IMG/VR virus record: IMGVR_UViG_3300037119_002976
Location: 1 to 64,000 of that record
From: a virus
Taxonomy: Duplodnaviria; Heunggongvirae; Uroviricota; Caudoviricetes
Length of the DNA stretch: 64,000 nucleotides
Direction: 5' to 3' (one strand)
Shown: piece after piece, positions 1-33,315 of the stretch
Position numbering within the stretch: position 1 is the first letter of the stretch
Layout: each line of letters opens with the position of its first letter
Notes under the pieces: generated by a model
Database searches by the model: none
What the model was told of the DNA's origin: nothing
Seen by the model: only the letters and a program-made list of their open reading frames with translations
Program-made: the position numbers and the translations under genes

Positions 1-167
1 GGACCGACGGTCAGAACGAGATCATCCTCATGAAGGAAGAGCCAGAGGATCAGGCCGAGCTCGCCCGCGTCCGCGAGATCGAGATCAAGCAGGCCCACAG
101 GAAGGCTGCGGCCACCGCCGATCGCGCCCGTGAGGCGCAGGCCGAGCTAGACAGGCTGCTCGCATGA
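1..167 (+). CDS. hypothetical protein, 3' fragment (ORF enters from upstream of window)
   Basis: Frame open from window edge to TGA 165-167; Ala/Arg/Glu-rich helical C-terminus; stop overlaps next start (ATGA). Confidence 0.4.
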   Translation, partial: TDGQNEIILMKEEPEDQAELARVREIEIKQAHRKAAATADRAREAQAELDRLLA

Positions 168-367
168 CCTGGGGAGGCTTCGTCCTCGCCTTCGTCCTTG
201 GCTGGCTGGCCTGCTGGTACCTCTCGAGCTTCCTGGTCAAGCGCGTACTGCGAAAAGGCGACGCGATGATGACCGATGCCCTCAAAGGACTGCCTCAGAC
301 GTCTCTCGTGCGCATCTACAAGGCCGCCGGTGCCGAAATCGAGCACCGGAAGGCGGAAATCGACTGA
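164..367 (+). CDS. small membrane protein (67 aa)
   Basis: ATG 164 overlaps upstream stop; hydrophobic N-terminal segment FVLAFVLGWLACWYL; stop TGA 365-367. Confidence 0.45.
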   Translation: MTWGGFVLAFVLGWLACWYLSSFLVKRVLRKGDAMMTDALKGLPQTSLVRIYKAAGAEIEHRKAEID

Positions 368-378
368 AAGGAGCCCAC

Positions 379-879
379 ATGGGCCTGTTCGACAGCAAAA
401 CCGACCCGACGACCGAGCGTTTCGATGCTCTGATGGAGGAAATGGCCGATCTGAAGCGATCGGTGACCGAATTGAAGGGCGAGAGGGCCGCGACGAGCAA
501 GATTCGCGACATGGAGCGCGAATACGTCGACACGAAGCGCCAACTGACCGATCTCCAGATCGAATTCGACAAGGAGAAGGAGAAGCACGCCCGCGAGAAG
601 CGCGAAGTCGAGCATCTGGTCGGTCTGGAGCGAAAGCGCTCCGAATTCGAGCGCGAGGCGGCCGTGACCGAGGCGAAAGTGGCCGTCCGCGAGGAGAACC
701 TCTCGGCCGAGCAGCAGCGCTTCAAGGACCAGATGAAATTCATCACCGATCGCTTCGAGAAGGAGATCGACCAGTCGAAGGAGCTGATGATGGAGATCCT
801 CGCTCGTCTGCCCAAGGTCGAGGCGCTCATGAAGCTCCAGAGCGGAAACGGCTCCAAGGAGCCCGTGGGGGTGGAGTAG
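379..879 (+). CDS. coiled-coil protein (166 aa)
   Basis: RBS AAAGGAG 7 nt upstream of ATG 379; Glu/Lys/Arg-rich heptad-like sequence; TAG 877-879. Confidence 0.6.
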   Translation: MGLFDSKTDPTTERFDALMEEMADLKRSVTELKGERAATSKIRDMEREYVDTKRQLTDLQIEFDKEKEKHAREKREVEHLVGLERKRSEFEREAAVTEAKVAVREENLSAEQQRFKDQMKFITDRFEKEIDQSKELMMEILARLPKVEALMKLQSGNGSKEPVGVE

Positions 880-1080
880 ATGGGGTACTTCACCACCTAC
901 CCGTGGTCGTCCAGTGCGTCGGCGCAGACCATCCAGTTCAACTACAGCGGCAGCACGACGCCGTACTACTACCCCGCTCCGATCCATCCTCCGGCGTCCG
1001 TGGTCGAGATGCCCGAGGGCCCGGTGGAGTGGCTGCGACGGCGGGTCACCGAGATCACCGATCTGGCGTACGCGGCATGA
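880..1080 (+). CDS. hypothetical protein (66 aa)
   Basis: ATG directly follows TAG of the upstream gene; TGA 1078-1080. Confidence 0.4.
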   Translation: MGYFTTYPWSSSASAQTIQFNYSGSTTPYYYPAPIHPPASVVEMPEGPVEWLRRRVTEITDLAYAA

Positions 1081-1544
1081 GGTTCGCCGAAGGCGACTAC
1101 GACCATCCAGGCCAGTGGGCGCTCTGGGAGCACTCGCTGTTCCGTGCGATCAACGGCCAGCGCGGGCAGCGGGTGCTCAAGGACCTGGAGCAGGCGCTAC
1201 TCGAGCTCCCAGAGAAGGCCCTCATGGACGGCGGGCTGTCCGACGGGAAGAACGTCTGCGCGGTCGGCGCGTACGTCGCGAAGAAGCGAGTGGACGCTGG
1301 CGAGGACCGCGATGAGGTGCTGGTAGACATGATCGTCCCCCTCGATCACTGGGGCGACGTGGACGGCTGGGAGGTCGAGGACAGGACGATCACGAGCGGC
1401 CAGCACGCCGGGATGCAGCTCACCATGATCGTTGCGGTTGCGGGCCTGAACGACGACCTCTACAAAGCCACGCCGGAGCGGCGATACGAGATGATGCTCG
1501 CGTGGGTGCGGGAGCGGATCCTTCCAGAGAAGGTGTTGGCATGA
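1077..1544 (+). CDS. hypothetical protein (155 aa)
   Basis: ATG 1077 overlaps the upstream stop (ATGA); it is the 3' part of the long 276-1544 frame, the only part not overlapped by better-supported genes. Confidence 0.5.
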   Translation: MRFAEGDYDHPGQWALWEHSLFRAINGQRGQRVLKDLEQALLELPEKALMDGGLSDGKNVCAVGAYVAKKRVDAGEDRDEVLVDMIVPLDHWGDVDGWEVEDRTITSGQHAGMQLTMIVAVAGLNDDLYKATPERRYEMMLAWVRERILPEKVLA

Positions 1545-1675
1545 CCTTCCTTCACTGGCTCAGGACGGTCAAGCCCGGCGATGCGCTCAAGTGGGGCGCC
1601 GTCGTCTTCGCCTACTGCCTCGCCATTCTCTTCCTGATCTCGGTCACGATCGCGATCGTGGAGCAGCACTCATGA
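1541..1675 (+). CDS. small membrane protein (44 aa)
   Basis: ATGA overlap at both ends (1541 and 1672); one predicted TM helix AVVFAYCLAILFLISVTIAIV. Confidence 0.35.
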   Translation: MTFLHWLRTVKPGDALKWGAVVFAYCLAILFLISVTIAIVEQHS

Positions 1676-2148
1676 CCATAAGCCGAGTGTGGCCTCTCTT
1701 CTCCGTCTCGATCGAGCGAGAAGACATCGCGGTTGGCGTGATGCACTCGGTCAAGGTCCCCGACGAGAAATGGACGTTCGTCGACAAGGCCGGGCACGGG
1801 CACTTCTGGAGGCTCTATTCCAAGAAGCCCTCCGACATCCCCACCTGCAAGGAGGTCGTCACCGGCACGCAGTGGGTTGGCGACGAGATCGACGGCGAGA
1901 TCTACGAGATCAAGGAGTGGCAGTGCAGAACGTGCGGCCAGACGATCGAGCCTGGCTATCGCCAGCAGCAGCAGCCAACTCATGTCCCTGGCCCGACCTG
2001 GGTCACGATCACGATGGAGGGTCGCGAGTACATCGTCACTCCTGAGCAGTACGCCAAGTCGGTTGAGGCGTGGGAGAAGGCCCTGCGAAAGATCAGCGGG
2101 GGAACGCCCGACTCGATCGTCTTCAGCAAGACGGGCGAACAGAAATGA
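1672..2148 (+). CDS. hypothetical Cys-containing protein (158 aa)
   Basis: ATG 1672 in ATGA overlap; C..C / CRTCG pairs suggest zinc binding; TGA 2146-2148. Confidence 0.5.
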   Translation: MTISRVWPLFSVSIEREDIAVGVMHSVKVPDEKWTFVDKAGHGHFWRLYSKKPSDIPTCKEVVTGTQWVGDEIDGEIYEIKEWQCRTCGQTIEPGYRQQQQPTHVPGPTWVTITMEGREYIVTPEQYAKSVEAWEKALRKISGGTPDSIVFSKTGEQK

Positions 2149-2375
2149 CGGCCGCCGAGAAGGCACGCCGGCTTCTCCCGGAGGGGCGCCTCATGATCAA
2201 GCAGGTCGATCCCGAGATCGGCAGCGGTCTGGTCGTTGCTGAGTGCCGAGGCGACTCCGGCGAGGTGTACTCACTCGGACATGATCCGACGAAGGACGAG
2301 TGGCGATGCACCTGTCGCGAGATGAAGGGCAACTGCTCGCACCTGCAGGCGCTCAAGCTCGTGGTGGTCGTATGA
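2145..2375 (+). CDS. SWIM-type zinc-finger protein (76 aa)
   Basis: ATGA overlap at 2145; C-terminal WRCTCREMKGNCSHLQAL fits the CxCx(n)CxH SWIM pattern. Confidence 0.5.
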   Translation: MTAAEKARRLLPEGRLMIKQVDPEIGSGLVVAECRGDSGEVYSLGHDPTKDEWRCTCREMKGNCSHLQALKLVVVV

Positions 2376-2472
2376 AGATCGGGCGTGGCGGGACCCACCA
2401 ATGCGGTCAGTCGTTCGGCATGGCCTGCCATCGAATGACACCGTCGCGCCCGGTACATCCAAAGGAGGACCT

Positions 2473-2664
2473 ATGAGTCCAGCAGAGATCGCCGCGGCGA
2501 TCAGGGAACTGAGTGCGTCCGAGCTAGTCGAGCTCGGCAGGCACTTGCACGACGATGAAGGTTGGTGGGAGACTGCGGCTGTTCCTGCCAAGCCCGCACC
2601 CGAGTCTCCCGGCGATTCAGTCGCCCAAGGGCTTCCGGCTGACTACTGGGAGACGGCGGAATGA
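2473..2664 (+). CDS. hypothetical protein (63 aa)
   Basis: Strong RBS AAAGGAGG 4 nt upstream of ATG 2473; TGA 2662-2664 overlaps the next ATG. Confidence 0.55.
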   Translation: MSPAEIAAAIRELSASELVELGRHLHDDEGWWETAAVPAKPAPESPGDSVAQGLPADYWETAE

Positions 2665-3563
2665 GCAGCGCAACGAAGGATGTCGACGACCTGGTGCGAG
2701 CGATCCGGGCGACTGGCACGCACAACGTGCAGTCGAACGGCGCTCACCACAAGGTGCTCGACGGAGCGGGGCACACCGTGTACGTGCTGCCCAAGACGCC
2801 GAGCGATCGGCGCTGGCGAGAGAACGCGATCCACGAGCTGATCAAGCAGGGCGTGTTCGAGGGTGATCCGAAGAAGGCCAGGAAGGAGAAGGGTCGCTTG
2901 CGACTGACCGACCCTGACGTACAGGCGATGAAGGTTGCGGCCGTCAAGGCTCGAGCTGCGAGGCTCGCGGCCGATACGGCTGTCGTCCGTGATCGCATCC
3001 AGCCGCTGGTCACGAAGATCGGGGGCTGGGGGATGCGCGAGGGCCAGGTCACCGCGTCCGAGCTCGGCATGGTGGCGAAGCACTGGGGCCGCGATCGACC
3101 GGATGTGTGGAAGACGGACGGTGCTGCGAAGTCGTCGGCTCAGAACAACATGAAGCACGCTGGCGGCTGCTCCCCGCAGGCCCTCGGCTTCTGGGATGCC
3201 TTCGTCACCGACTGGGAGCTCGCCGATGATCCTCGACGCTGGTACTTCGATCTCGCTCGGGAGATGAAGGGCTTGGCCCCGATCGAAACGAAGGTCATCG
3301 TTGGTGGTGCCGAGCTCACCGAGACCACAACTACTTCGGCGAAGCCGAACCTTCGACGAGCCGGAAGAGTGAGGACATACAGAATGGAGGGAGAAGAGAA
3401 GCATCCACTGGAGCCAGACATCGTTGTCGGCCATCTCGCACTCAGAGCTGTTGCTCTGATGGCCGCCGGACGAGAGACAATCGACATTGAAGAGGTGCTC
3501 GAAGTCGGCGAGCAGATTCTCGCCCTCGAGAATCGAGCACAAACGGAAGGAGAGGAAGAGTGA
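2661..3563 (+). CDS. hypothetical protein with HicA-like N-terminal domain (300 aa)
   Basis: N-terminus [31 protein letters not shown]...IHELIKQGV resembles the HicA/YcfA fold; the rest is Ala/Arg-rich helical. Confidence 0.5.
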
Positions 3564-4132
3564 AAACGATCATCGTTGCAGCCCTGCTCGCGATCTGCGC
3601 AGGCCTGCTCAGCGTCACGCCCGCGATCGCGGGCGGTGGTGGCTACGAGTGCCACTGCGAGAAGGGGGAGCCTGGGCCTCCCGGTCCTCCCGGCCCGAAG
3701 GGCGACAAGGGCTACAAGGGCGACCAAGGCCCTCCCGGCCCTCCTGGGCAGGGTGAGCCAGGTCCGAAGGGTGATCCCGGTCCTGCCGGCCCTGCCGGAC
3801 CGAAGGGCGATACTGGGCCCGGTGGCCCAGGCGGCCCAGGCGGCCCCGCAGGACCTTCTGGCCCGAAGGGTGACGCAGGCCCTCCCGGCCCCGCAGGGCC
3901 TCCTGGAGAGGCGGGGCCTCCCGGCCCGGCAGGGAAGGTAGGCAAGTCCGGCACCGTGAAGCTCAAGCCGACGATCATCTACCGCACGGAGCCGGGTCTG
4001 CTCAAGCGGATCAAGCTGCTGGAGATCAAGATCCGCAAGCTGGAGAAGTGGTGTCCGATGCCGCCCGCACCATGCCCGAAGGGCTACACGCGCAACCCGA
4101 GCGGTGGCTGCTCGCCACAGGGAAGCGGTTAA
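3560..4132 (+). CDS. secreted collagen-like protein (signal peptide + Gly-Pro-X repeats + Cys-containing C-terminal domain)
   Basis: GTG 3560 overlaps the upstream TGA. Signal peptide [24 protein letters not shown], then about 100 aa of [22 protein letters not shown]... G-X-Y repeats, then a coiled/Cys C-terminus. Confidence 0.7.
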
Positions 4133-4153: not shown

Positions 4154-4333
4154 ATGCGCAAGCTGATCGTGGCGATCTTCGTCACAGCTCTGCTCGTCCC
4201 GGCAACGGCGGCGGCGCAGCACGTCAAGACCAACTCGGCCAAGCCGAACCCGATCAGGGAGTACGGCAAGTACCGTCCGAACCCCGGCCCGAAGACGTAC
4301 CGCTTCGTCGGGGGAGCGCATCGGGCGCAGTAG
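4154..4333 (+). CDS. small secreted protein (59 aa)
   Basis: RBS GGGAGGGAAC before ATG 4154; signal-peptide-like MRKLIVAIFVTALLVPATAAAQ. Confidence 0.45.
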   Translation: MRKLIVAIFVTALLVPATAAAQHVKTNSAKPNPIREYGKYRPNPGPKTYRFVGGAHRAQ

Positions 4334-4803: not shown

Positions 4804-5018
4804 GCGAACAGAACGTGTCAAAGACGAAGAACGCCTACCGCGCCGAAGGCAAGATCATCCACGTCGGCACTCCGGGAATCTTCCACTTCCCTGCATCGGG
4901 ATCGAACGAGACACGATGCGGCTTCGACATGGCGGAGGCCCGTTCAACGGATCACCCGCTCAGTGAATACGAGCCCTGCGTCGTCTGCTTCGAGGACTGG
5001 GATCGGAGCCTGCCGTGA
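4800..5018 (+). CDS. hypothetical protein (72 aa)
   Basis: GTG 4800 in GTGA overlap; Cys pairs near the C-terminus (CGFD...CVVC). Confidence 0.45.
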   Translation: MSEQNVSKTKNAYRAEGKIIHVGTPGIFHFPASGSNETRCGFDMAEARSTDHPLSEYEPCVVCFEDWDRSLP

Positions 5019-5137
5019 CCACGGAACACAAACCACAGAATGTCTGCAAGCACGACGGCTACCTGGCCTCGACCCACTCGCGGCTCAAGAGCGAACTCAA
5101 GTGCATGAAGTGCGGGAAGGTCTGGAAGTCACGGTGA
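5015..5137 (+). CDS. small zinc-ribbon-like protein (40 aa)
   Basis: GTG 5015 in GTGA overlap; C..H...CxxC arrangement; the ORF ends just before the tRNA cluster. Confidence 0.35.
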   Translation: MTTEHKPQNVCKHDGYLASTHSRLKSELKCMKCGKVWKSR

Positions 5138-5223
5138 GTTCGGTCTCTTTGGTAGGCTCGCGCCGTGAAGTCGTTCCCATAGGGCCGCGCCCCTCCGATG
5201 GACTAGCTCACAGGCTGATGCTC

Positions 5224-5296
5224 GCCAGCTAGTTCAATGGTTAGAACACCTCACCTGATGTGGAGGAAATCCTTGGTTCGATTCCAGGGGCTGGCT
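5224..5296 (+). tRNA. tRNA-like gene; isotype unresolved and possibly degenerate
   Basis: Perfect 7 bp acceptor stem GCCAGCT/GGCTGGC, D-arm GTTC-AATGGTTA-GAAC and T-arm CTTGG-TTCGATT-CCAGG. The anticodon stem carries a mismatch and the candidate loop is CCTGATG with no U33. No encoded CCA. Confidence 0.35.
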
Positions 5297-5303
5297 CTCT
5301 CAT

Positions 5304-5372
5304 GCGGCTGCGTACTGGGTACCGAGTCGATTCTAAACCGGCCTCGGGCGGGTTCGATCCCCGTCAGCCGCT
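5304..5372 (+). tRNA. compact tRNA-like gene; candidate anticodon CUA (amber-reading); D-arm abnormally short
   Basis: Acceptor GCGGCTG/CAGCCGC (7 bp perfect) and T-arm GCGGG-TTCGATC-CCCGT. The anticodon arm GTCGA-TTCTAAA-CCGGC has U33 and A37 in place and CTA at positions 34-36, with one A.C mismatch. The D region is only GTAC-TGG-GTAC. Confidence 0.35.
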
Positions 5373-5409
5373 CTTGATGTAGTCCTGCCGTTCATCTAAC
5401 CTCGGAAGC

Positions 5410-5481
5410 CGCGGGCGACTCGGTCGGAGCAGAGGGTGCGCTCATAACGCACAGAACCGGGTTCGACTCCCGGGCCCGCTA
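5410..5481 (+). tRNA. tRNA-Met (anticodon CAT; could also be lysidine Ile)
   Basis: Anticodon arm GTGCG-CTCATAA-CGCAC is a perfect 5 bp stem with U33 and A37. T-arm CCGGG-TTCGACT-CCCGG; acceptor 6/7 paired with a 1-72 C.T mismatch; no CCA. Confidence 0.6.
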
Positions 5482-5485
5482 CTCG

Positions 5486-6294: not shown

Positions 6295-6558
6295 ATGGAT
6301 GAACACGAGGTTCGGGTCATCGTTCGCGAGGAGATCGCTTCGCTCGCAGGGAAGGCTCTACGCCGGACGCAGGACCGCAGTTACACGCGCTCGATCGAGC
6401 GGAACATGGCGATCGACGTCGCCAATGACGAGCTGGCGGAGTTCTGGGGCGAGGTGCTCTCGGAGTACGGGGACGTGATCATGGATGGCGACAAGGTCGT
6501 CGGCTGGCCGACCCCCGCCGAGTCCGTCGATATCCCCGCCGAGGCTTCCGACAAGTAG
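6295..6558 (+). CDS. hypothetical protein (87 aa)
   Basis: ATG 6295; acidic; TAG 6556-6558 sits 3 nt before the next ATG. Confidence 0.45.
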   Translation: MDEHEVRVIVREEIASLAGKALRRTQDRSYTRSIERNMAIDVANDELAEFWGEVLSEYGDVIMDGDKVVGWPTPAESVDIPAEASDK

Positions 6559-6561
6559 CCC

Positions 6562-7077
6562 ATGAGCCAGCTCGAGGAGCGCGAAGAGCGCCAGGAGCTC
6601 GCCGTCTCAGACATCACCGAGGCTGAGAAGGCCCAGTTCCTGCAGCTGGTCAGGCAGGGCCACGATCGCCAGGAGGCGGCGAAGATCCTCGGCTACAAGG
6701 CTCGGCCCTGGCGAGCAGTCTGTTCGCCGTCCTCGCCTCACTACGACGAGGACTTCGCGAACGCCTACGCCGAAGCGATCGGCTCGCCCGAGGCGAAGCT
6801 CTATTTCATCGAGCGCCTGCGCGAGGAGACTCTGCGGCGAGCGCTGACCGATTCCGATCGCCTCCTGGAGAAGCTCATGCTCGTTCACGACCCGGACTGG
6901 GTGCCTCTCCGGCAGAAGGATGTGAACGTGAACATCCACGCCTACATCCAGCAGCACTTCAAGGACCTGCCCACCGACCTCCTGGAGCAGCTGCTCGCAG
7001 CGCTCGACCGGGAGGCTGCCGGTGAGATCGTCGAAGGCGAGGTCAACGAGTTACCGCCCGGCGGTAATGACGACTGA
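6562..7077 (+). CDS. putative terminase small subunit (171 aa)
   Basis: Lies directly upstream of the large terminase gene and is of typical size. N-terminal helix-turn-helix-like segment KAQFLQLVRQGHDRQEAAKILGY. Confidence 0.45.
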   Translation: MSQLEEREERQELAVSDITEAEKAQFLQLVRQGHDRQEAAKILGYKARPWRAVCSPSSPHYDEDFANAYAEAIGSPEAKLYFIERLREETLRRALTDSDRLLEKLMLVHDPDWVPLRQKDVNVNIHAYIQQHFKDLPTDLLEQLLAALDREAAGEIVEGEVNELPPGGNDD

Positions 7078-7273
7078 CTCCTACGGTGGCACGAAGATCA
7101 AACGGCCCAGGTGGGCCATCAAAGAGCTGTGGCCCTGGGATGGGCCAGACAGGCTGTCTCTGTGGGAGCGCTGGCACGCCGATCCCAAGCGCCTCGGCCT
7201 CGAGCCCGAGCCTCTTCTATGGTGGGAGACCGACGTGGTGAGAAAGGAAGAAGAGTGGCCGCTGGCAGCGTGA
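7067..7273 (+). CDS. hypothetical protein (68 aa)
   Basis: ATG 7067 overlaps the end of the upstream gene; Trp-rich; TGA 7271-7273 overlaps the terminase GTG. Confidence 0.35.
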   Translation: MTTDSYGGTKIKRPRWAIKELWPWDGPDRLSLWERWHADPKRLGLEPEPLLWWETDVVRKEEEWPLAA

Positions 7274-8898
7274 AAGAACGCGAGGAGATGCGCCAGGCCT
7301 TGCGCCAGGAGATCGTCGATCGCAAGGTCTCGGATGAGGCCGAGCGTCTCGGCCAGTCGTTGAGTGCCTTCGTCAGGGAGGCGTGGCCGCACGTCAAGAA
7401 GCACGAGCAGTACCGGCACAACTGGCACCTCGACGCGATCAACATTCACCTGGAGGCCGTGAGCGCGGGCGAGATCCATCGCCTGCAGATCTGGGTCCCG
7501 CCGGGTTCGATGAAGTCGCTGTCGGTGTCCGTCTTCTGGCACGCCTGGGAGTGGACGACGCGGCCGTGGCTTCGCTACTGGTCGGCCTCGTACGAGACCC
7601 GCCTGGCGGGACGTCTCTCGGCGATGGCCCGCGACCTCATGCTGGAGCGCTGGTACCAGGAGCGCTGGGGCCCGCTCTTCAAGTTCAACCGCGACGCCGA
7701 GCACTACTACGGCAACGACCAGGGCGGCACGCGCCTGGCGACGTCACCGGACTCGTCAGGAACCGGCGAGCACGGGCACCGCATCATCATCGACGACCCG
7801 ATCAACGCAAAGGACGCCGACGCCACCTCGAAGTCGACGCTTGACACCGTGAATGGGTGGTTCGATGGCACCGTCCCCTCGCGCGGTCTCGACGGAGTCC
7901 TCTCGCCTGACGGCGATATCATCGACCACGCCCGCGTCATCATCATGCAGCGCCTGCACGAGGACGACCTCGCTGCTCACGCCCTCGAGAACGATCGCGA
8001 TTACGTCGTCCTGTGCATCCCGGAGCGCTACTACGCGGGCCATCCGTTCGCTTACCGCGGACAGGGCGGGCACACCTCGACTGAGGACCTCGGCTCGACG
8101 TTCGGGCCCGGAGATCCGCGCATCGAGGACGAGCTGCTGTGGCCGGATCGCCGTTCCGAGAAGGCATCGGATGCGCTCAAGGCCCAGCTGAAGCATCGCG
8201 CCGCGGGTCAGCTCCAGCAGATGCCCGCGCCGAAGGAAGGCCAGTCGCTCCTGCGCTCGTGGTGGCGCTTCTACGATCCGAACCTCTTCAACGACGTGAA
8301 GCGCCGCCCCCGCTGCTCGATGGTCGTTCAGTCGATCGACTGCCCGCTCAAGGACAAGCAGACGAACGACATGATCTCGATCCAGGCCTGGGGCTGCAAG
8401 GGCGCCGATCGCTACCTGATCGACATCCGCACGTCGCACATGAGTTACTCGCAGGCCAAGCGCGCCGTCATCGAGCAGGCGAGGTACGTCCGGGCGATGT
8501 ACCCGAAGGCTCGCCAGAAGATCCTCATCGAGAACGGCGGCTACGGGCCCGAGCTCATCGTCGACCTGAAGCGCATCCTTACCGGCGTCGAAAAGGTCAG
8601 CCCAGCCTCGGAGGGCGACAAGGAGATCCGCGCCGACTCGGCTGCCGACGACCTGCAGGCGGGCAACGTCTGGTTGCCGGGGATCGGCGCCGGCGCCGAT
8701 ACGACACTGGGCCCGGCGGGCACCGTCTCCAAGGACATCAACGACTTCATCGAGTCGTGCGCGGTCTTCCCCCACGGCAAGCACGACGACGATGTCGACG
8801 CCTGGTCGCAGGCGATGAACTGGCTGCGCTCGCAGATCATCATTCCCGGTCGCACTGGCAGTGCCTACAAGGGGATGCGCAAGCGGGTGGCGGCATGA
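7270..8898 (+). CDS. terminase large subunit (about 542 aa)
   Basis: N-terminal ATPase with P-loop-like WVPPGSMKS (Terminase_6-like) and a C-terminal nuclease-like region with acidic residues. GTG 7270 in GTGA overlap; ATG 7288 is an alternative start. Confidence 0.8.
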   Translation: MKEREEMRQALRQEIVDRKVSDEAERLGQSLSAFVREAWPHVKKHEQYRHNWHLDAINIHLEAVSAGEIHRLQIWVPPGSMKSLSVSVFWHAWEWTTRPWLRYWSASYETRLAGRLSAMARDLMLERWYQERWGPLFKFNRDAEHYYGNDQGGTRLATSPDSSGTGEHGHRIIIDDPINAKDADATSKSTLDTVNGWFDGTVPSRGLDGVLSPDGDIIDHARVIIMQRLHEDDLAAHALENDRDYVVLCIPERYYAGHPFAYRGQGGHTSTEDLGSTFGPGDPRIEDELLWPDRRSEKASDALKAQLKHRAAGQLQQMPAPKEGQSLLRSWWRFYDPNLFNDVKRRPRCSMVVQSIDCPLKDKQTNDMISIQAWGCKGADRYLIDIRTSHMSYSQAKRAVIEQARYVRAMYPKARQKILIENGGYGPELIVDLKRILTGVEKVSPASEGDKEIRADSAADDLQAGNVWLPGIGAGADTTLGPAGTVSKDINDFIESCAVFPHGKHDDDVDAWSQAMNWLRSQIIIPGRTGSAYKGMRKRVAA

Positions 8899-10330: not shown

Positions 10331-10484
10331 CTTCTCAGGACTGAGAAGACGGCCCGCTCCGGGGTTGGTTCGCCGGGGCCGCAAAGATTCCGAGGAGTCT
10401 TTGCACGCTGGCCAAGTCAGCTTCTCACCCACACGCCGAGCGGACCGTCCACCTACCAGTCCGGCTCGCGTGAGTGAGTTCTTA

Positions 10485-10557
10485 TGCCCGCCCCGGGACT
10501 CGAACCCGGAAACCTCCGTTTCTGAGACGGAGTGCTATGCCGATTCGCTAGACGGGC
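10485..10557 (-). tRNA. tRNA, candidate anticodon CAG (Leu-type anticodon on a class-I, short-variable-arm scaffold)
   Basis: Reverse complement gives acceptor GCCCGTC/GGCGGGC, T-arm CCGGG-TTCGAGT-CCCGG and anticodon arm TCCGT-CTCAGAA-ACGGA with U33 and A37. The variable region is only 5 nt; no CCA. Confidence 0.55.
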
Positions 10558-10559
10558 AA

Positions 10560-10629
10560 TGGGGCCCCGAGGAATCGAACCTCGTCCTGTCGGGTTACAG
10601 CCGAGCATGCGCCACTACACCAGGACCCC
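10560..10629 (-). tRNA. tRNA, candidate anticodon GUA (Tyr-type anticodon on a class-I scaffold)
   Basis: Reverse complement gives acceptor GGGGTCC/GGGCCCC, T-arm CGAGG-TTCGATT-CCTCG and anticodon loop CTGTAAC, with a 4 bp stem plus a C.C pair. It lies 2 nt from the neighbouring tRNA. Confidence 0.5.
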
Positions 10630-10830: not shown

Positions 10831-11799
10831 ATGGGTTGGATCGTTCTCACGGTGCTCGCCGTGATCCTGTTCTGGGTTGGAATCGGTATCTGGGTCTACG
10901 CACGCAAGCGCGATGCGGTTCTCGAGGCCGAGGGCCGCACATCTTCAGATCTCATGCCATCCGGGCTCGGGCTCTACGCCGCGATCGGGGTCGGCATCTG
11001 TTGGGTCTTCATGTCCTTCTTCTTCATGGTCCACACGGTGGGCCAGCGGGAGGTGGCGATCGTCTACAACTTCTCCGGCACGATCGCGGGGAAGAAGGAT
11101 CCCGGAGTCGTGACCACGTTCCCCTGGCAGCACGTTCGCAAGGAGAACGTCGGCATCCAGCACACCGAGTACGACTTTGGCGCGAACAACTCCGCTGTCT
11201 CCAAGGACCAGCAGAAGATCTTCGCGAAGCTGGCGGTCAACTACCAGATCGACTCCGTGAACGTCGTCGACCTGTACGAGCGGGTCGGGCCCTCGTGGAA
11301 GGACATCATCATCGAGGCCAGGGTGCCGCAGGTGTTCAAGGAAGTCACTGCGACGTTCCCGACGCCGAAGATCACCGAGGAGCGGGCCGAGCTGCGCGAG
11401 CAGACTCGCACGCGCCTCATCGCCGAGCTCAACCAGTACGACATCAAGGTGGTCGACGTCTTCATCACGAACCTCGGCTTCTCCGATCAGTACTCGCAGG
11501 CGATCGAAGAGAAGCAGCAGCAGGTTCAGGATGCGCAGCGTGCCGAGGCCAAGGTCAAGCAGGTCGAGGCCGAAGCTCGCCAGAAGGTCGCGCAGGCCGA
11601 GGGTGAGGCGAAGTCGAACGTCGCTCGCGCTCGTGGTGACGCTTCTGCCAACCGTCTGCGTCAGCGCTCGCTGACCCCACGCCTGATCCAGTGGGAGGCA
11701 ATCCAGAAGTTGAACCCCAATGTCCAGATCATCGTCTGCCCGCCGCAGTCGGTCTGTATCCCGAACTCGGCTGTCGTGCCGAACCCAGGAGGCAACTGA
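10831..11799 (+). CDS. SPFH / band-7 (stomatin/prohibitin/HflK-C family) membrane protein (322 aa)
   Basis: RBS GGAGG 6 nt before ATG 10831; N-terminal TM helix; SPFH core REVAIVYNFSGTIAGKKDPGVVTTFPW...; long C-terminal coiled coil (EEKQQQVQDAQRAEAKVKQVEAEARQK). Confidence 0.75.
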   Translation: MGWIVLTVLAVILFWVGIGIWVYARKRDAVLEAEGRTSSDLMPSGLGLYAAIGVGICWVFMSFFFMVHTVGQREVAIVYNFSGTIAGKKDPGVVTTFPWQHVRKENVGIQHTEYDFGANNSAVSKDQQKIFAKLAVNYQIDSVNVVDLYERVGPSWKDIIIEARVPQVFKEVTATFPTPKITEERAELREQTRTRLIAELNQYDIKVVDVFITNLGFSDQYSQAIEEKQQQVQDAQRAEAKVKQVEAEARQKVAQAEGEAKSNVARARGDASANRLRQRSLTPRLIQWEAIQKLNPNVQIIVCPPQSVCIPNSAVVPNPGGN

Positions 11800-12604: not shown

Positions 12605-12728
12605 GGTCATGGAGCTCTTCGTGATCGTCAACGCGGCCTGCGGCATCGCGGCCTTCGTGATCGCGAAGGGGATGATCAAGCGAGCGAAGCGCAAGATCAC
12701 CGGAGAGGACGAGCGATCCGGCCCTTGA
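12597..12728 (+). CDS. small membrane protein (43 aa)
   Basis: ATG 12597; TM helix LFVIVNAACGIAAFVIA; TGA 12726-12728 inside the TTGA overlap with the next gene. Confidence 0.3.
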   Translation: MARVMELFVIVNAACGIAAFVIAKGMIKRAKRKITGEDERSGP

Positions 12729-13288
12729 CCGAAGCTCTCCTTCTCGCCCCGCACGGCGACGACGAGACCCTCTTCGCAGCGTTCACGTGCATGCGCTACG
12801 GCAAGCGCATGCACGTGATCGTCTGCACCCAGGACGCCGATCCGGCGATCCGCGGCGTTCGCTCGATGGAGACGAAGAGAGCCATCAGTCTCCTCGGTTG
12901 CACCCATCACGAGTGGCCCATGTCGGCCGACGAGCCCAACTGGGATTCCGCGAAGGAATGGCTGGGAGCGTGGGCCTCCGACAAGCTGTTCGCGACGAGA
13001 ATCGAGAAGGTGTTCGCGCCGGCGATCGAAGTCGAGGGCCACGAGCAGCACAATGCTGTCGGACTCCTAGCCCAAGATGTCTTCGGTGATCGCGTCACGC
13101 ACTACCTCACCTATGGCCCTCGTGGAGAGCGCTCCCAGCACGGCGTGGAGGTCGCACCCCCGACGGCGCACGAGATCGTTCGCAAGCTACGAGCTCTGTC
13201 CTGTTACGAGTCGCAGATCACGAACCCTTGCTCCATGCCCTGGTTCTTCGATCTGCTTGACATGAGAGAGTGGTGGGCGGCGGAATGA
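12725..13288 (+). CDS. PIG-L / LmbE-family de-N-acetylase (187 aa)
   Basis: TTG 12725 in TTGA overlap; N-terminal signature LLLAPHGDDETL (the HPDDE motif of the PIG-L family) and conserved His residues downstream. Confidence 0.65.
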   Translation: MTEALLLAPHGDDETLFAAFTCMRYGKRMHVIVCTQDADPAIRGVRSMETKRAISLLGCTHHEWPMSADEPNWDSAKEWLGAWASDKLFATRIEKVFAPAIEVEGHEQHNAVGLLAQDVFGDRVTHYLTYGPRGERSQHGVEVAPPTAHEIVRKLRALSCYESQITNPCSMPWFFDLLDMREWWAAE

Positions 13289-13686
13289 GCGGTCGCGAGC
13301 TGGTTGTCACCCGTCACGCGGTCGCGGCCTACTCTCGACGGCGCAACGACGCACGCTCACTGCGCCTGCTCGCCGCTGTCAACTGGAACCCAGACATCGT
13401 GCGCAGGTCGTACGGCGCGGAGACCGCCGACAGGCTCATCATCTTCTACAACGAGCTCGAGCGCGAGATCGCCGAATGTGTCCAGTACGCGCTGGACAAC
13501 GGACTCACCGAGAGGCGCAAGCCTCCAGGCTTCGTTCTCTACAGGCGCAAGCGCGATGCCTTGCCCGATGGGCAGAGGTTCGTTCGCTGTGAAGAGGACT
13601 CGCCGTACGGCTTCATCGTTCAGCGCGACCCCGGCGGGAAGGACGTTGTCCTGACGACCATCTCTCGCGTGGGGGTGCGGAAGTGA
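13285..13686 (+). CDS. hypothetical protein (133 aa)
   Basis: ATGA overlap start; TGA 13684-13686 overlaps the next GTG. Confidence 0.45.
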   Translation: MSGRELVVTRHAVAAYSRRRNDARSLRLLAAVNWNPDIVRRSYGAETADRLIIFYNELEREIAECVQYALDNGLTERRKPPGFVLYRRKRDALPDGQRFVRCEEDSPYGFIVQRDPGGKDVVLTTISRVGVRK

Positions 13687-14210
13687 GTCTCCGCGACCTG
13701 GAGCGCGAGTCGATCCGCAGCTTCGTCGCGCAGGCGGCATCCGAGGGCTACCTGCAGAGCGCTGTCCTCGATTACGGCTGCGGCAAGCAGCCCTACCGTG
13801 AGATCGTGGAGGCGCAGCTCCCGCTGGGCGGGGTGTATCAGCCCTTCGATCAGCAGCGCTTTCCGGGGAACGTCTCCGGCGAGAACATCGGTGAGGGTGA
13901 TCCACTCATCATGGAGGGGTGGGGCTCGATCCTCTGCACGCAGATCCTTCAGTTTGTCCCTGACGTGGAGGGTCTGCTCGGCAGGTTCTGGCACGTCCTG
14001 CGCGAGGGCGGCCATCTCGTGATGACGTACGTGACCAATTGGGCCGAGGTTGAGCCGGGTGATCTTCATCGCCACACGAGAGCGGGCATGGAGCGACTGC
14101 TGATCGAGTCCGGATTCAAGATCATCCAGCACACACCTCGGGAGATCGCCGCGGTCACGCTCGACGGCGAGAACCTGTACGCCGGGTACGGGGTGGTGGC
14201 CCGCGCCTGA
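13683..14210 (+). CDS. class I SAM-dependent methyltransferase (175 aa)
   Basis: GTGA overlap start; motif I VLDYGCGKQPY; acidic loop after beta2; typical length for a small O/N-methyltransferase. Confidence 0.65.
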   Translation: MSLRDLERESIRSFVAQAASEGYLQSAVLDYGCGKQPYREIVEAQLPLGGVYQPFDQQRFPGNVSGENIGEGDPLIMEGWGSILCTQILQFVPDVEGLLGRFWHVLREGGHLVMTYVTNWAEVEPGDLHRHTRAGMERLLIESGFKIIQHTPREIAAVTLDGENLYAGYGVVARA

Positions 14211-14629
14211 TGTGCTTCACCTGCACCCTCGAAGAGGTCACCGGGATCGACTCCCAGGACTTGGAGGATGGTTGGACGCCGGACATCGTCGCTGCCGTCC
14301 AGTGGCCTGCGGTCACCGACGACATGAAGCTCCTTGCTCGCCTGCGCTGGGTGCTCTACGAATGCACGAGCGCCTGCACGGGCGGGCCGATGCACATCTT
14401 CACCGACGACTACAACATCGAGGACTCCAACCTCGACTTCTGCGAGAAGGACACCCTCAACGACACGCACTGGGGCGTGACCGACTACCCAGACTGGCCG
14501 CTGGTGAAGGCGCTCACGCTCCGGATGATCGAGCTCGCGCGGCCGATGAACAACGCCGAGCGAGTCGTCTCACTGTCTCTGTCCTGGGGTGAGCTACAGC
14601 TCGACACGAACGGAAAGGTGGTCCGATGA
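14210..14629 (+). CDS. hypothetical protein (139 aa)
   Basis: ATG 14210 overlaps the upstream TGA by 1 nt; Cys/Trp-rich. Confidence 0.5.
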   Translation: MCFTCTLEEVTGIDSQDLEDGWTPDIVAAVQWPAVTDDMKLLARLRWVLYECTSACTGGPMHIFTDDYNIEDSNLDFCEKDTLNDTHWGVTDYPDWPLVKALTLRMIELARPMNNAERVVSLSLSWGELQLDTNGKVVR

Positions 14630-14805
14630 GGAACTTCATCGTCTTGCGGAAGATCGACTCCAGTGGAGTCTGGCAGGAGGTCACAGCGCTGCGGGCGTGG
14701 TCTCGGAAGGGGGCGCTGCGTCAGGTCGAGGAGGCGGGCACGCAGTTCGGCCAGTACGTCGCCGTCCCGCTCAGGCAGTGGCGTGTCATGGACATACCGC
14801 TGTGA
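14626..14805 (+). CDS. hypothetical protein (59 aa)
   Basis: ATGA overlap at 14626 and GTGA overlap at 14802-14805 bracket this ORF between two genes; frame differs from the 14589 ORF. Confidence 0.35.
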   Translation: MRNFIVLRKIDSSGVWQEVTALRAWSRKGALRQVEEAGTQFGQYVAVPLRQWRVMDIPL

Positions 14806-15299
14806 GCAAGATCGTCATCGACGTCGGGTGCGCACGCTACGGCGGCGACTACTCCATCGAGCGGTTGATCGAGAAGTTCGAGCCGGACGTGCTCTATGGC
14901 TTCGATCCATCGTGGGAGCCCGAGATGTACGACTTCGCCTCCAACCCCACTCCGGTGATTGTGTCAACCGAAGTGGCGTGGACACGGCGTGGACTCGTGC
15001 CCTTCATGGTGGACGGGCTGAACGGCCAGGTGGGCGACGCCGACTTCTGGCCGCGCCTTCGCTGCATTGATCTCGCTCGCTTCATTCGCAATCTTCCGGA
15101 TGGGGACGAGATCATCCTCAAGATGGACTGCGAGGGCTCCGAGTACGACCTGCTGGAGCACCTGATGAACAAGGGCGTCGATGAGCGCCTCTCTCTCGCA
15201 TGGATCGAGTGGCACCCGCGCGGAGTGCCCGATCCTGTTGAGCGCCGTGCGTCGATCGAGCGCCGGCTGCGCTGCCAAGTCGATGAATGGCTCTGGTGA
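14802..15299 (+). CDS. FkbM-family methyltransferase (165 aa)
   Basis: GTG 14802; motifs IVIDVGCARYGGDYS and LKMDCEGSEYDLLEHL (FkbM signature). Paralogue of 41567-42121. Confidence 0.65.
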   Translation: MSKIVIDVGCARYGGDYSIERLIEKFEPDVLYGFDPSWEPEMYDFASNPTPVIVSTEVAWTRRGLVPFMVDGLNGQVGDADFWPRLRCIDLARFIRNLPDGDEIILKMDCEGSEYDLLEHLMNKGVDERLSLAWIEWHPRGVPDPVERRASIERRLRCQVDEWLW

Positions 15300-15390
15300 G
15301 GAGTTCAATTGGCCGCTTCTGATCTCCCTGATCCTGTGCGTCCTGTTCTGGGCGATGGTGGTGGGCCTCCTGCTGTGGTGGGTTCTGTGA
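15283..15390 (+). CDS. tiny membrane peptide (35 aa), speculative
   Basis: ATG 15283 in the frame of the 15181 ORF; TM helix LLISLILCVLFWAMVVGLLLWWVL; its TGA 15388-15390 overlaps GTG 15387 of the next gene. Confidence 0.2.
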   Translation: MNGSGEEFNWPLLISLILCVLFWAMVVGLLLWWVL

Positions 15391-16043
15391 ACGTCACGGC
15401 GATCATCGTCACCCGCGGAGACGTCGACCTCACTCCGATCCTCGATTCGCTGCCCGTCGAGTGGGAGCGCATCGTCTGGGACAACGGCTATCACGGCTGG
15501 CCCCACGTCAATCACTACAAGGACGGGAACGACTGGCGCCCGGACGGCGTGCCGGGTGAGGTGCACGATCTCTCGGTGTACGGACGCTACGCCGCCATCC
15601 AGTATGCGAGCAACGACCTGATTTACGTCCAGGACGACGACTGCGTGGTGAGCGACCCGGGCCGCGTTATGTGGCACTGGCTGAATCAGCCGAACGCCCA
15701 GGCGGTCGTCTGCAACATGCCGCCGCAGTTCCGCTACGGCTTCTACGAGGAGCACGCGCTGGTCGGCTTCGGCGCTGCCTTCCACCGAGACGCGCCCGAG
15801 GAGGCGTTCAGTACCTTCTGGGAGGCGGTGACGCTCGGGCCTCTCGGGCCAACGGGCACGGACTTCTTCAACCGCACCTGCGACGTCGTCTTCACTGCGC
15901 TCACTCCTCGCGTCCTCGTCGACGTGCCCTACGAGGACCTCTCTTGGGCGACGGCCGACGATCGGATGTACCGCCAGCCCCAGCACCTGGGCGAGCGCTC
16001 GAAGATGCTCGAGCTGGCGTTCCGGGCGAAGGACGCGACGTGA
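15387..16043 (+). CDS. putative glycosyltransferase, GT-A-like (218 aa)
   Basis: GTG 15387; N-terminus VNVTAIIVTRGDVDLTPILDSL resembles GT-A NDP-sugar binding strands; acidic DxD-like LIYVQDDDCVV. Confidence 0.5.
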   Translation: MNVTAIIVTRGDVDLTPILDSLPVEWERIVWDNGYHGWPHVNHYKDGNDWRPDGVPGEVHDLSVYGRYAAIQYASNDLIYVQDDDCVVSDPGRVMWHWLNQPNAQAVVCNMPPQFRYGFYEEHALVGFGAAFHRDAPEEAFSTFWEAVTLGPLGPTGTDFFNRTCDVVFTALTPRVLVDVPYEDLSWATADDRMYRQPQHLGERSKMLELAFRAKDAT

Positions 16044-16633
16044 GCAGCAACCTGCGCCTCTACAACTCGGACGACGTTTGCAAGGACGGCTACCCGTTCG
16101 CCTGGCACAACGAGCACTGGCACGACGATCGTCGCTACCCGCCGATCAAGGACATGATCAGGGAGCTGAACGGACATCGCTGCGAACGCTGCGGGCATCC
16201 GTACAAGAAGGGCAATCCGGCGATCTCGGCCGGTGGTCAGTGGTCACCGTGCGACGCGGAATGCACTCACGGTGGACCTGGGCGCACCATCGAAGTCTTG
16301 GCAAAGAGTCCGCCGATCTACCGGCCCAGTGACGACATTCCAATCATCGAAGCTCAGTGGCGCATCCTTACCGTCCATCACCTGAACGGCATCAAGTGGG
16401 ACTGCCGTTGGTGGAACCTCGCCGCTCTCTGCCAGCGCTGTCACCTGACGGTCCAGGGCCGCGTTGTCATGGAGCGCGTCTGGGTCTGGGAGCACACCGA
16501 GTGGTTCAAGCCGCACGCCGCTGGCTGGTACGCCTTCGACTATCTCGGCGAAGAGCTCACCCGCGAGGAGACGATGGAGCGAATGGAAGAACTGCTCGCA
16601 CTGGAACGCGGCGGAGAGATCGGACCCTGCTGA
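16040..16633 (+). CDS. HNH homing endonuclease (197 aa)
   Basis: GTGA overlap start; zinc-finger pairs ERCGHPYKK / C..C; HNH core TVHHLNGIKWDCRWWNLAALCQRCH. Confidence 0.65.
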   Translation: MSSNLRLYNSDDVCKDGYPFAWHNEHWHDDRRYPPIKDMIRELNGHRCERCGHPYKKGNPAISAGGQWSPCDAECTHGGPGRTIEVLAKSPPIYRPSDDIPIIEAQWRILTVHHLNGIKWDCRWWNLAALCQRCHLTVQGRVVMERVWVWEHTEWFKPHAAGWYAFDYLGEELTREETMERMEELLALERGGEIGPC

Positions 16634-16824
16634 TGGAGCGCTCACGCGATGCTGCTCGACGCAAGAGGGAACAAGCGTTTCGCAAGCGCGAGAAGGAGCG
16701 CCTGGCGCGTGAGGCTCGTGAGGCTCGTTGCGCCGTCTGCGGTTTGGAGGTAACGATTGAGGATCGCTGCAATGACGGTCTCTACCTGCACCGGGAGTGC
16801 GCCTATGCCGAGTCCTCGCGATAA
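16633..16824 (+). CDS. small zinc-binding protein (63 aa)
   Basis: ATG 16633 overlaps the upstream TGA; CAVCG...C..C. Confidence 0.4.
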   Translation: MERSRDAARRKREQAFRKREKERLAREAREARCAVCGLEVTIEDRCNDGLYLHRECAYAESSR

Positions 16825-17020
16825 GACCCGCGAAGAGATCCTCTACGAGGAGATGTTCGGACGCCCGCCGTCCCGACTCCCCGATGATCACCCTGATGCG
16901 TGGCAGTGGGAGTACCGCGGGGGCAAGAAGGAGTACGAGGAGCTGCAGCTGAAGCTCGGTCTCGTGAAGGACGACGGCGGGCCCGTCAAGATCGACGGCC
17001 AGGAGGAGCTGTTCGGATGA
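16805..17020 (+). CDS. hypothetical protein (71 aa); start uncertain
   Basis: ATG 16805 (alternatives 16772 and 16853); TGA 17018-17020 inside the ATGA overlap with the next gene. Confidence 0.35.
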   Translation: MPSPRDKTREEILYEEMFGRPPSRLPDDHPDAWQWEYRGGKKEYEELQLKLGLVKDDGGPVKIDGQEELFG

Positions 17021-17724: not shown

Positions 17725-18116
17725 GTGAAGTTTCCAAACCACACAAGGATCGCCGCGCCGAGGCGTGGTCACGGATCGACACAACCAAGACGGAGGACAT
17801 GGTGCCGTCGTCCGAACTTCGTGGCTGGCTGGTCGAGTACGTCAGCCTCTTTGAGCAGCTGGAGGCTCAGGAGGGTGCGCTCAAGATGATGGTCATGGCC
17901 GCTGATCTGATCCTGGCGCAGCAGCCAACCCCGGTTTCGGGTGACAGTAACGCGATGGTCGTGGACATCAAGGCGGGGCTGTATGCGCTAGGGCGTGCTG
18001 TCAAGCCTGCTCGCGCCCTGCTCGCCTCGAATCCAGCTAGTGAACCGGAGCGTCCGCGTCCGAGATTCCCGTTGTTCTCAAGCGGCGAATCGAACACAGA
18101 GTCGGAGTCGGCGTGA
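17721..18116 (+). CDS. hypothetical protein (131 aa)
   Basis: ATGA overlap start; helical; TGA 18114-18116 overlaps the next GTG. Confidence 0.5.
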   Translation: MSEVSKPHKDRRAEAWSRIDTTKTEDMVPSSELRGWLVEYVSLFEQLEAQEGALKMMVMAADLILAQQPTPVSGDSNAMVVDIKAGLYALGRAVKPARALLASNPASEPERPRPRFPLFSSGESNTESESA

Positions 18117-18859: not shown

Positions 18860-18901
18860 GAAGATCTACTCCGGCCGATCGCGGCGGTAGCCTCCGGCCA
18901 A

Positions 18902-24880: not shown

Positions 24881-24970
24881 TGAAGTACCTTCCTCTCCGC
24901 CGGGGCGCTTTTGTCTGAAGGGGCGAGGTGCCCCGGCACCTCTCGCTGGACGTTATCACTGCTTCGGTAG

Positions 24971-28596: not shown

Positions 28597-33315
<4,719 letters not shown>

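Follow-up and report, generated by a model that had tools for sequence, protein, structure and literature searches.

The tRNAs that come closest in function and in architecture to the one described here belong to two different groups. Amber-suppressor tRNAs are known from recoded bacteriophages (crAss-like, Lak and others), low-GC gut phages in which TAG is depleted as a stop codon and occurs in-frame in late genes (10.1101/2021.08.26.457843). In compact decoding tRNAs, which include tRNAPyl and the mitochondrial (mt) tRNASer(UCN), the linker is a single nucleotide or absent, the D loop and the variable loop are short, and the anticodon stem is long and can even carry a bulge on its 3′ side (PMC7609411). 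The present analysis concerns a cluster of three tRNA genes at positions 5138–5485 of a 64,000-nucleotide stretch of DNA from a virus of the Caudoviricetes (IMG/VR record IMGVR_UViG_3300037119_002976, positions 1 to 64,000; hereafter the window). For the second gene of the cluster, a compact tRNA gene with the stop anticodon CUA, the phage amber-suppressor tRNAs are the closest functional class, and the compact-core group formed by tRNAPyl and mt-tRNASer(UCN) has the closest architecture.

The region is best read as a phage tRNA operon, made up of a conserved leader and three atypical tRNA genes which, judging from their sequences, are presumably functional. It is intergenic and co-directional with the neighbouring genes, lies 1.8 kb upstream of the gene for TerL, and is followed directly by a conserved block consisting of a gene for a 71-amino-acid (aa) protein, an HNH endonuclease gene, a gene for an 87-aa protein and the TerS gene. 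The features of the region, all on the plus strand, are as follows.

5138–5485, plus strand: tRNA operon, in a 348-bp gap between the plus-strand open reading frames (ORFs) 5015–5137 and 5486–5683/5698–5913
5146–5223, plus strand: conserved leader, about 77% identical to those of the related loci L012 and L015
5224–5296, plus strand: tRNA gene 1, anticodon GAU; 39.2 bits with Rfam RF00005 (gathering threshold 29 bits) and Ile(gat) at 5224–5297 with default ARAGORN
5304–5372, plus strand: tRNA gene 2, compact, 69 nucleotides (nt), anticodon CUA at 5333–5335; recognised by relaxed ARAGORN, homologues and covariation
5373–5409, plus strand: spacer between tRNA genes 2 and 3, partly conserved in L012, with no structure or model match
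5410–5482, plus strand: tRNA gene 3, initiator-like, anticodon CAU; Met(cat) with default ARAGORN, below the Rfam tRNA cut-off

The T loops of the three genes are TTCGATT, TTCGATC and TTCGACT, and CCA is encoded after none of them. An initial annotation, made from the letters of the sequence, had described three non-canonical tRNA genes on this strand with perfect or near-perfect acceptor stems, with these T loops and without CCA, and all of this is present; as an observation it is confirmed, and its interpretation is partly supported. The sequence available is extended by a contig (L032) that corresponds to window positions 1–3973 with three mismatches and continues for 6.4 kb to the left, giving about 70 kb in total.

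Gene 2 is counted as real because it is conserved in homologues, and not because of a relaxed search. When the thresholds of ARAGORN were lowered to 80–85% (-ps80/-ps85), 5304–5373 was called with the anticodon CTA; the same setting gave 39 calls in 64 kb and the call alone carries no weight. Homologues are present in L012 (7828–7896), L015 (4727–4798, minus strand) and L024 (9313–9383, minus strand), whose TerL proteins are 85%, 85% and 82% identical to that of the window phage, respectively. Default ARAGORN calls those of L015 and L024 as CTA, and in both the cloverleaf is the minimum-energy structure (z-scores −2.9 and −2.2). One cloverleaf of 23 pairs fits all four copies, with 96.7% of the pair cells paired (alifold consensus and pair counts), compared with 27–45% in a control in which the 3′ partners were slid. 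Five pairs have changed on both sides, and the covariation score was reached by none of 500 shuffles; across genes 1 and 2 the compensatory double changes span the D stem, anticodon arm, T stem and acceptor. The compact 69-nt gene with a 3-nt D loop and CUA at positions 34–36 that the initial annotation had proposed is borne out by the same anticodon in the relaxed call and in the three homologues. Covariance-model searches with Rfam gave a divided result, with gene 1 accepted and gene 2 below the threshold; the best match of gene 2 within the Rfam clan is tRNA-Sec at 18.5 bits (cut-off 47).

The window and 28 related loci were searched with a covariance model derived from the four gene 2 sequences and yielded no additional copy; near and distant searches of GenBank phage DNA revealed no homologue of the cluster. 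Pattern scans of IMG/VR for genes 1, 2 and 3 returned nothing, as did a scan of the JGI metagenomes with the gene 2 pattern, and the pattern from the anticodon loop to the T arm of gene 2 had no match in 185,579 species genomes.

The acceptor stem of gene 2 has 7 bp (GCGGCUG/CAGCCGC) and is followed by U73 in all four homologues. A single nucleotide, C8, links it to a D stem of 4 bp, which is GUAC/GUAC, GCGC/GCGC or GCAC/GUGC among the copies and encloses a D loop of 3–5 nt in which GG is always kept; the D arm of the window copy reads GUAC-UGG-GUAC. The anticodon arm abuts the D stem directly and is composed of 4 plus 3–4 pairs (about 8 bp) with one unpaired base on the 3′ strand. In the window the arm is CGAG+UCGA/CCGG+(bulged C5342)+CUCG with the loop UUCUAAA, so that the loop and the CTA had been placed correctly in the initial annotation while the arm had been made too short. 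The 7-nt loop is YUCUAAA, in which U33-C34-U35-A36-A37-A38 is invariant in all four copies while the stems vary, the pattern that would be expected for a loop read as an anticodon; CUA at 34–36, U33 and a purine at 37 in a loop of 7 nt are the features of an amber-suppressor loop. The pair closing the loop is C-G in L015, U·G in L024 and A·C in the window and L012. The variable region has two unpaired nt, the T stem has 4–5 bp across the copies, and the T arm of the window copy is (G)CGGG-UUCGAUC-CCCG(U). None of the four copies has lost the bases that make tertiary contacts, which are the GG of the D loop and the UUCGA of the T loop. With its 1-nt linker, bulged anticodon arm of about 8 bp, 2-nt variable region and 3-nt D loop, gene 2 departs from the dimensions of the standard cloverleaf, in which the linker has 2 nt and the anticodon and T stems have 5 bp each, and to which its 7-bp acceptor, 7-nt anticodon loop and canonical T loop conform.

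The published definition of tRNAPyl comprises the anticodon CUA, a linker of 0–1 nt, a D loop of 4–5 nt, a 3-nt variable loop, a 6-bp anticodon stem and the lack of G18-G19 and T-psi-C, and in the tRNAPyl of Methanomethylophilus alvus the 3′ strand of the anticodon stem carries an unpaired base (PMC7609411). Compared by architecture and not by sequence, gene 2 resembles tRNAPyl in its anticodon, linker (1 nt), D loop (3–5 nt) and variable loop (about 2 nt). It differs in its anticodon stem, which has 7–8 pairs and a bulged 3′-side base rather than 6 bp, in the invariant GG of the D loop and UUCGA of the T loop, in a glycine-like acceptor with U73 in place of the usual G73, and in its phage setting. 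tRNAPyl is accompanied by pylS and pylBCD; no aminoacyl-tRNA synthetase, release-factor or pyl gene was seen among the window proteins from 90 aa upwards or among nine of the larger proteins encoded in the 6.4 kb left of the window. The mammalian mt-tRNASer(UCN) combines a compact core with G18-G19 and T-psi-C, as does gene 2 (PMC7609411). Like the amber-suppressor tRNAs of recoded phages, gene 2 is a phage-borne tRNA with CUA, is accompanied by no phage synthetase among the proteins just listed, and would depend on the host for charging. Unlike these tRNAs, it occurs in a phage of 64% GC from soil or freshwater, in which TAG accounts for 18% of the stops and is not found in-frame, and it is structurally non-canonical and missed at default settings. 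Gene 2 is best read as a variant that is placed neither in the standard tRNA model nor in tRNAPyl, and thus as a new structural variant of natural amber-suppressor tRNA, with decoding of UAG as its presumed activity.

The acceptor determinants of bacterial tRNAGly are U73, G1-C72, C2-G71 and G3-C70 (PMC9976931), and the acceptor end of gene 2 is this set in all four homologues. Because of this identity, the charging enzyme is likeliest to be one that tolerates a changed anticodon, with glycyl-tRNA synthetase (GlyRS) as the leading guess. The three genes would be transcribed together from the conserved leader, and the tRNAs, whose spacers in this family are just 1–37 nt, would be separated by the host RNase P and 3′ processing enzymes; as no CCA is encoded, they would be completed by the host CCA-adding enzyme. 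Gene 2, charged through its glycine-type acceptor end, possibly by GlyRS, would then compete with release factor 1 for UAG in the ribosomal A site. The outcome would be partial readthrough of TAG stops of the host, the phage or both rather than a changed code, because TAG is a true stop in this phage and no in-frame TAG occurs in the 70 kb. The chances that gene 2 is charged through its glycine-like acceptor and reads UAG against release factor 1, with partial readthrough as the result, are judged to be evenly balanced.

Several observations weigh against this reading. The window copy of gene 2 receives no default ARAGORN call and no match to the Rfam tRNA model. It is the weakest of the four copies, with a cloverleaf that lies 4.1 kcal/mol above its minimum-energy fold and a z-score of −1.15, a D loop of only 3 nt and an A·C pair closing the anticodon loop. 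The covariation is based on only four sequences, all of a single narrow clade. The stack formed by the D stem (4 bp) and the anticodon arm (about 8 bp) is longer, to our knowledge, than in any ordinary elongator tRNA. Furthermore, C35 and C36 are also required by bacterial GlyRS (PMC9976931), and gene 2, with C34-U35-A36, has neither.

The remaining points on this side come from the use of TAG. Genes were called with a codon-usage caller trained on the window, which matches the database gene calls wherever both exist. The approximately 93 called genes end in TGA (69), TAG (17) or TAA (7), and those ending in TAG (18%) include the genes of proteins of 1572 and 1404 aa; an efficient suppressor would extend or fuse the products of all these genes. 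Throughout the approximately 70 kb examined, the coding frames are free of in-frame TAG. The screen required a higher GC content at the first than at the second codon position (GC1 > GC2) together with a high value at the third (GC3), as GC3 alone is misleading and is also high in antisense shadow frames; every candidate for TAG as a sense codon that had a coding signature proved to be either a gene whose downstream neighbour shares its frame or a tail without coding function. The extensions past the 17 TAG stops have no coding signal or are merely the next gene, and no readthrough candidate held up among the TAG-terminated genes, which the initial annotation had suggested checking for conserved downstream extensions. 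TAG is not depleted in the carriers, where it makes up 14% of the stops compared with 12% in relatives with no CUA tRNA in the sampled DNA (p = 0.65). The window and the 6.4 kb to its left represent about 70 kb out of approximately 104 kb, so that about 34 kb of the genome lies outside.

Three kinds of individual readthrough site were considered and rejected. The TAG of 4154–4333 is followed by an extension of 73 codons that is a low-complexity intergenic stretch ending in a 23-aa membrane ORF, and the TAG of 6295–6558, which is in frame with TerS in the window, is not in frame in L012. The in-frame TAG-ATG junctions at 879/880 and 46445/46446 represent the tight packing that is natural for TAG stops. 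The first of these junctions (877–882) is conserved at 143–148 of L025, which comes from a phage that carries the CUA tRNA, and the other lies at 46443–46448; the conserved junction probably reflects tight gene packing, though readthrough would fuse both proteins.

Gene 1 is the only one of the three genes above the Rfam tRNA threshold. Its anticodon stem (CCUC-A-C/GGAGG) contains a bulged A30 and had been described in the initial annotation as defective; because it is identical in all four homologues it is counted as a conserved feature and not as damage or decay. The four homologues are 93% identical and show compensatory changes at the acceptor pair 5:68 and the T-stem pairs 49:65 and 50:64. 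Position 37 is G (C in L012), position 73 is U, and A4-U69 replaces C4-G69. Judged by the published determinants (PMC9976931), gene 1 is without most of the bacterial isoleucine determinants except the anticodon. Its body resembles a phage tRNA-Thr(GGU), and its closest match among GenBank phages, a weak one, is a tRNA-Thr(ggt) of a Microbacterium phage.

The leader upstream of gene 1 is kept in L015, although the genes that follow it there are found at another site and on the other strand. Part of it (5190–5223) had been taken for a degenerate D-arm fragment; a conserved element is indeed present, which in L012 and L015 extends over 5146–5223, but it shows no covariation, no sigma-70-like consensus and no match to the tRNA model. 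The idea of a fourth tRNA was dropped on the grounds that there is neither a model match nor covariation. The leader may serve as a promoter or in processing, or it may be what is left of a tRNA 5′ half. A scan of the JGI metagenomes with the leader pattern gave one chance match, inside a decarboxylase gene. Within the leader, ACTAGCT (5201–5207) is the exact reverse complement of AGCTAGT (5227–5233), a segment of gene 1 that runs from the last part of the acceptor strand into the D stem; in L015 both sides have changed together (ACTAGG/CCTAGT). This complementarity could reflect an alternative hairpin between leader and tRNA, or a tRNA 5′ half that was duplicated and has left a remnant.

Homologues of gene 3 number nine and are found in every relative that covers the site, always upstream of the block containing the 71-aa gene, the HNH gene, TerS and TerL. 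The initial annotation had regarded gene 3 (as 5410–5481) as the only member of the cluster with a canonical fold, a description that does not hold for a tRNA with a C1·U72 mismatch and an odd D arm that falls below the Rfam threshold (best match tRNA-Sec, 24.6 bits, cut-off 47). Position 1:72 is mismatched in all nine homologues (C·U in seven, U·C in L018 and C·C in L014); the gene has A73 and the loop CUCAUAA, and five pairs show compensatory changes. The pairs 29–31:39–41 are G-C, C-G and G-C in the window, are GGG:CCC only in L018 and include one G·U in L014 and L026, every pair being strong or wobble. The pair 11:24 is U:A and not A:U in all nine, and the D arm is atypical. From these features gene 3 is best described as a putative initiator-type tRNA of the phage, fixed across the clade. 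It shares with the bacterial initiator tRNA(fMet) the CAU within a CUCAUAA loop, a 5′ end CGCGGG, an unpaired 1:72 and A73; the three pairs beside the anticodon loop are rich in G/C and are GGG:CCC in L018. It differs from tRNA(fMet) in having C·U, U·C or C·C rather than C·A at 1:72, U11:A24 rather than A:U, a middle G:C pair that is reversed in the window copy, an atypical D arm and a score below the Rfam threshold.

The leader, gene 1 and gene 2 behave as a unit that looks mobile, since they occur intact at two different genome sites among the relatives. Gene 1 always accompanies gene 2, forming a two-tRNA cassette. In the window and in L012, which has the full cluster of three genes, the cassette is placed upstream of the CAU tRNA; in L015 (4727–4952, minus strand) and L024 (9313–9453, minus strand) it is on the opposite strand downstream of TerL. 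The equivalence of the second site across the relatives is based on a shared downstream element. In the window this site is occupied as follows, with both genes recognised by ARAGORN and Rfam.

10484–10629, minus strand: second cassette site
10560–10629, minus strand: tRNA(GUA), 49.2 bits
10484–10558, minus strand: tRNA(CAG), 45.2 bits
10335–10462, minus strand: structured-RNA-like element adjoining the second cassette site

The second site thus holds Tyr and Leu tRNAs in the window, the GAU/CUA cassette in L015 and L024, and no tRNAs in L012, L014 and L016. The variable regions of the Leu(CAG) and Tyr(GTA) tRNAs of the window are only 4–5 nt long, which makes them atypical for their anticodons because the variable arm is normally long in bacterial tRNALeu and tRNATyr. 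The element at 10335–10462 has homologues in L012 (13903–13992), L014 (13250–13347), L016 (4931–5023), L024 (9166–9282), L015 (4598–4689) and L022 (5952–6062), and no relative covering the site lacks it, with or without flanking tRNAs. In this element a closing stem of 13 bp leads to internal loops and then to a tip that varies; 27 pairs are predicted, 8 of them compensatory. Its G·U pairs favour the minus strand, and it has no Rfam match at E<5.

Two further genes place the cluster in the context of tRNA cleavage and modification. A gene for the RNA ligase RtcB is located at 3360–4676 of L032 (Pfam PF01139, 217.6 bits), approximately 1.7–3.0 kb to the left of window position 1. RtcB joins 2′,3′-cyclic-phosphate or 3′-phosphate ends to 5′-OH ends, and such ends are left by many anticodon nucleases; its presence points to a conflict over tRNA cleavage. 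The carrier L012 encodes, at 1545–2078, a SpoU-family methyltransferase of 177 aa, the best matches of which are TrmJ and TrmL, below the family cut-offs. TrmJ and TrmL are responsible for 2′-O-methylation of tRNA positions 32 and 34. No SpoU match was listed in the sampled upstream DNA of the non-carriers L014, L018 and L020. Escape from tRNA-targeting defences is documented for phage tRNAs in which the anticodon arm is altered (PMC10264068, PMC11464382, PMC11555353). The tRNAs of phage T5 that counter PARIS and retron effectors are, like those described here, phage tRNAs with non-standard anticodon arms, here found beside RtcB (PMC10264068, PMC11464382, PMC11555353). Unlike the CUA tRNA, which would replace nothing, the known examples replace sense-codon tRNAs destroyed by a host nuclease. 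By analogy, an anti-defence role is plausible for gene 1 and perhaps for gene 3, which leaves the stop anticodon of gene 2 unexplained. The anti-defence function raised in the initial annotation is thus a possible one, with RtcB and the TrmJ/TrmL-like enzyme of L012 providing some context.

An account in which gene 2 does not decode at all would extend this role to both cassette tRNAs, which would act as nuclease-resistant replacements for host tRNAs, or as decoys or inhibitors of host tRNA-cleaving nucleases that are blocked or trapped by the bulged arms; the CUA loop would mimic a host loop such as the CUCUUAA of tRNALys(CUU). The presence in the same phage of RtcB, able to ligate the ends that anticodon nucleases leave, the TrmJ/TrmL-like 2′-O-methyltransferase of a carrier, the conserved anticodon-stem bulges in both tRNAs and the lack of a TAG readthrough target are all in keeping with such a role, as is the documented evasion by phage tRNAs with altered anticodon arms (PMC10264068, PMC11464382, PMC11555353). 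However, a tRNA that replaces another needs a sense codon to read, and there is none for CUA. The exact U33/CUA/A37-A38 loop, combined with an acceptor, T loop and D-loop GG that are all intact, is a pattern typical of decoding on the ribosome and is not known to be needed by a decoy. The link to RtcB is a co-occurrence in one genome only, and on balance this account is rather unlikely. That genes 1 and 2 are decaying pseudogenes or chance folds, kept as RNase P/Z signals or hitch-hiking beside the initiator-like tRNA, is very improbable. This would agree with the failure of the window copy of gene 2 in default ARAGORN and the Rfam tRNA model, its poor folding alone, the many false calls of relaxed ARAGORN and the absence of the cassette from most relatives, but it is contradicted by the compensatory double substitutions in the D stem, anticodon arm, T stem and acceptor, by anticodon loops that are invariant while the stems vary, and by a cassette that is intact at two genome sites. 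The idea of an attP remnant was likewise dropped, the genes being full cloverleaves with compensatory changes.

A homologue of tRNAPyl, charged by a PylRS of the host or of the remaining approximately 34 kb of the phage, would share with gene 2 the CUA, the one linker nt, the D loop of 3–5 nt, the very short variable region and an elongated anticodon stem with a 3′-side unpaired base as in the M. alvus tRNAPyl; U73 is also known in some bacterial tRNAPyl (PMC9976931). Gene 2 nevertheless retains the G18-G19 and T-psi-C loop that tRNAPyl lacks and has a stem of about 8 rather than 6 bp, the window proteins from 90 aa upwards and nine of the larger proteins of the left flank include neither a class II synthetase nor a pyl gene product, the loop-to-T-arm pattern is unmatched in the species genomes, and TAG is a common stop in this phage; such an origin is therefore highly improbable. 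Recoding of TAG in the manner of code 15, which the initial annotation had connected with the suppressor tRNA, would be enabled by a phage-encoded CUA tRNA as in the recoded gut phages (10.1101/2021.08.26.457843). It fails for the 70 kb seen, in which the long ORFs are intact under the standard code, the genes are densely packed, all three stop codons are used without any in-frame TAG, and TAG is as frequent a stop in carriers as in non-carriers; at 64% GC the phage also contrasts with the recoded lineages, which are low-GC with depleted TAG, and that gene 2 enables such a code in the phage is barely conceivable. Decoding of UAG by gene 2 under a standard code is the reading preferred here. 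In its widest form, gene 2 and its three homologues would constitute an undescribed structural class of natural UAG-decoding tRNA, found in standard-code, high-GC phages with RtcB and anticodon-loop methylation genes and moving as a cassette with a bulged-stem GAU tRNA, by which the phage causes readthrough or disarms tRNA-directed defence while its own code is unchanged; this wider proposal is tentative and somewhat doubtful.

Should gene 2 decode UAG, suppressor tRNAs would extend beyond the low-GC recoded or near-recoded phages and their carriers could still rely on TAG as a stop, which raises the question of the role of controlled readthrough during infection. The range of tRNA shapes accepted by the ribosome and a host synthetase would also be wider, and orthogonal tRNAs for use in high-GC bacteria could be developed from the architecture of gene 2. 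Should gene 2 be a decoy, a tRNA mimic with a stop anticodon would represent a novel way of countering immunity based on tRNA cleavage. In either case, conserved phage tRNAs escape the default tRNA finders; missed tRNAs were already suspected by Borges et al., who found suppressor tRNAs in only 35–40% of recoded phages (10.1101/2021.08.26.457843).

The window has a GC content of 63–69%, and the phage comes from soil or freshwater samples. A packaging and structural module is encoded in the window and includes the following genes.

6562–7077: TerS-like protein
7255–8898: TerL
47775–51989: tape-measure-type protein

Collagen-like proteins, glycosyltransferases and methyltransferases are among the further products. 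There is no close match to the window at the DNA level among GenBank phages, the best TerL match of which is 33% identical; closer relatives (TerL 62–100% identical), some of them approximately 104 kb in length, are known from metagenome assemblies only. IMG/VR relatives with a TerL identity of about 52% carry no tRNAs, and the 252-aa ORF adjoining the cluster has no relatives in IMG/VR. A scan of genomes with TerL revealed only relatives of 42–55% identity, within metagenome-assembled genomes from three different phyla, and no host is assignable.

Between called genes, the approximately 450 bp at 23793–24240 contain only proline/arginine-rich ORF translations, in several frames, and a minus-strand gene of about 215 aa at approximately 24243–24900 was missed by the gene caller used here. 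The 1572-aa ORF at 28597–33315 lies in a stretch of 69% GC; a protein batch that contains it gave a collagen triple-helix match (E 1.6e-119) that most likely belongs to this ORF. A second collagen-like protein, of the tail-fibre type, is the 190-aa product of 3560–4132, for which the match was confirmed directly. Downstream of a Band_7/SPFH gene (10831–11799), a run of glycosyltransferase, methyltransferase and PIG-L deacetylase genes at 12700–19400, which is common to the relatives, may be a sugar-modification module.

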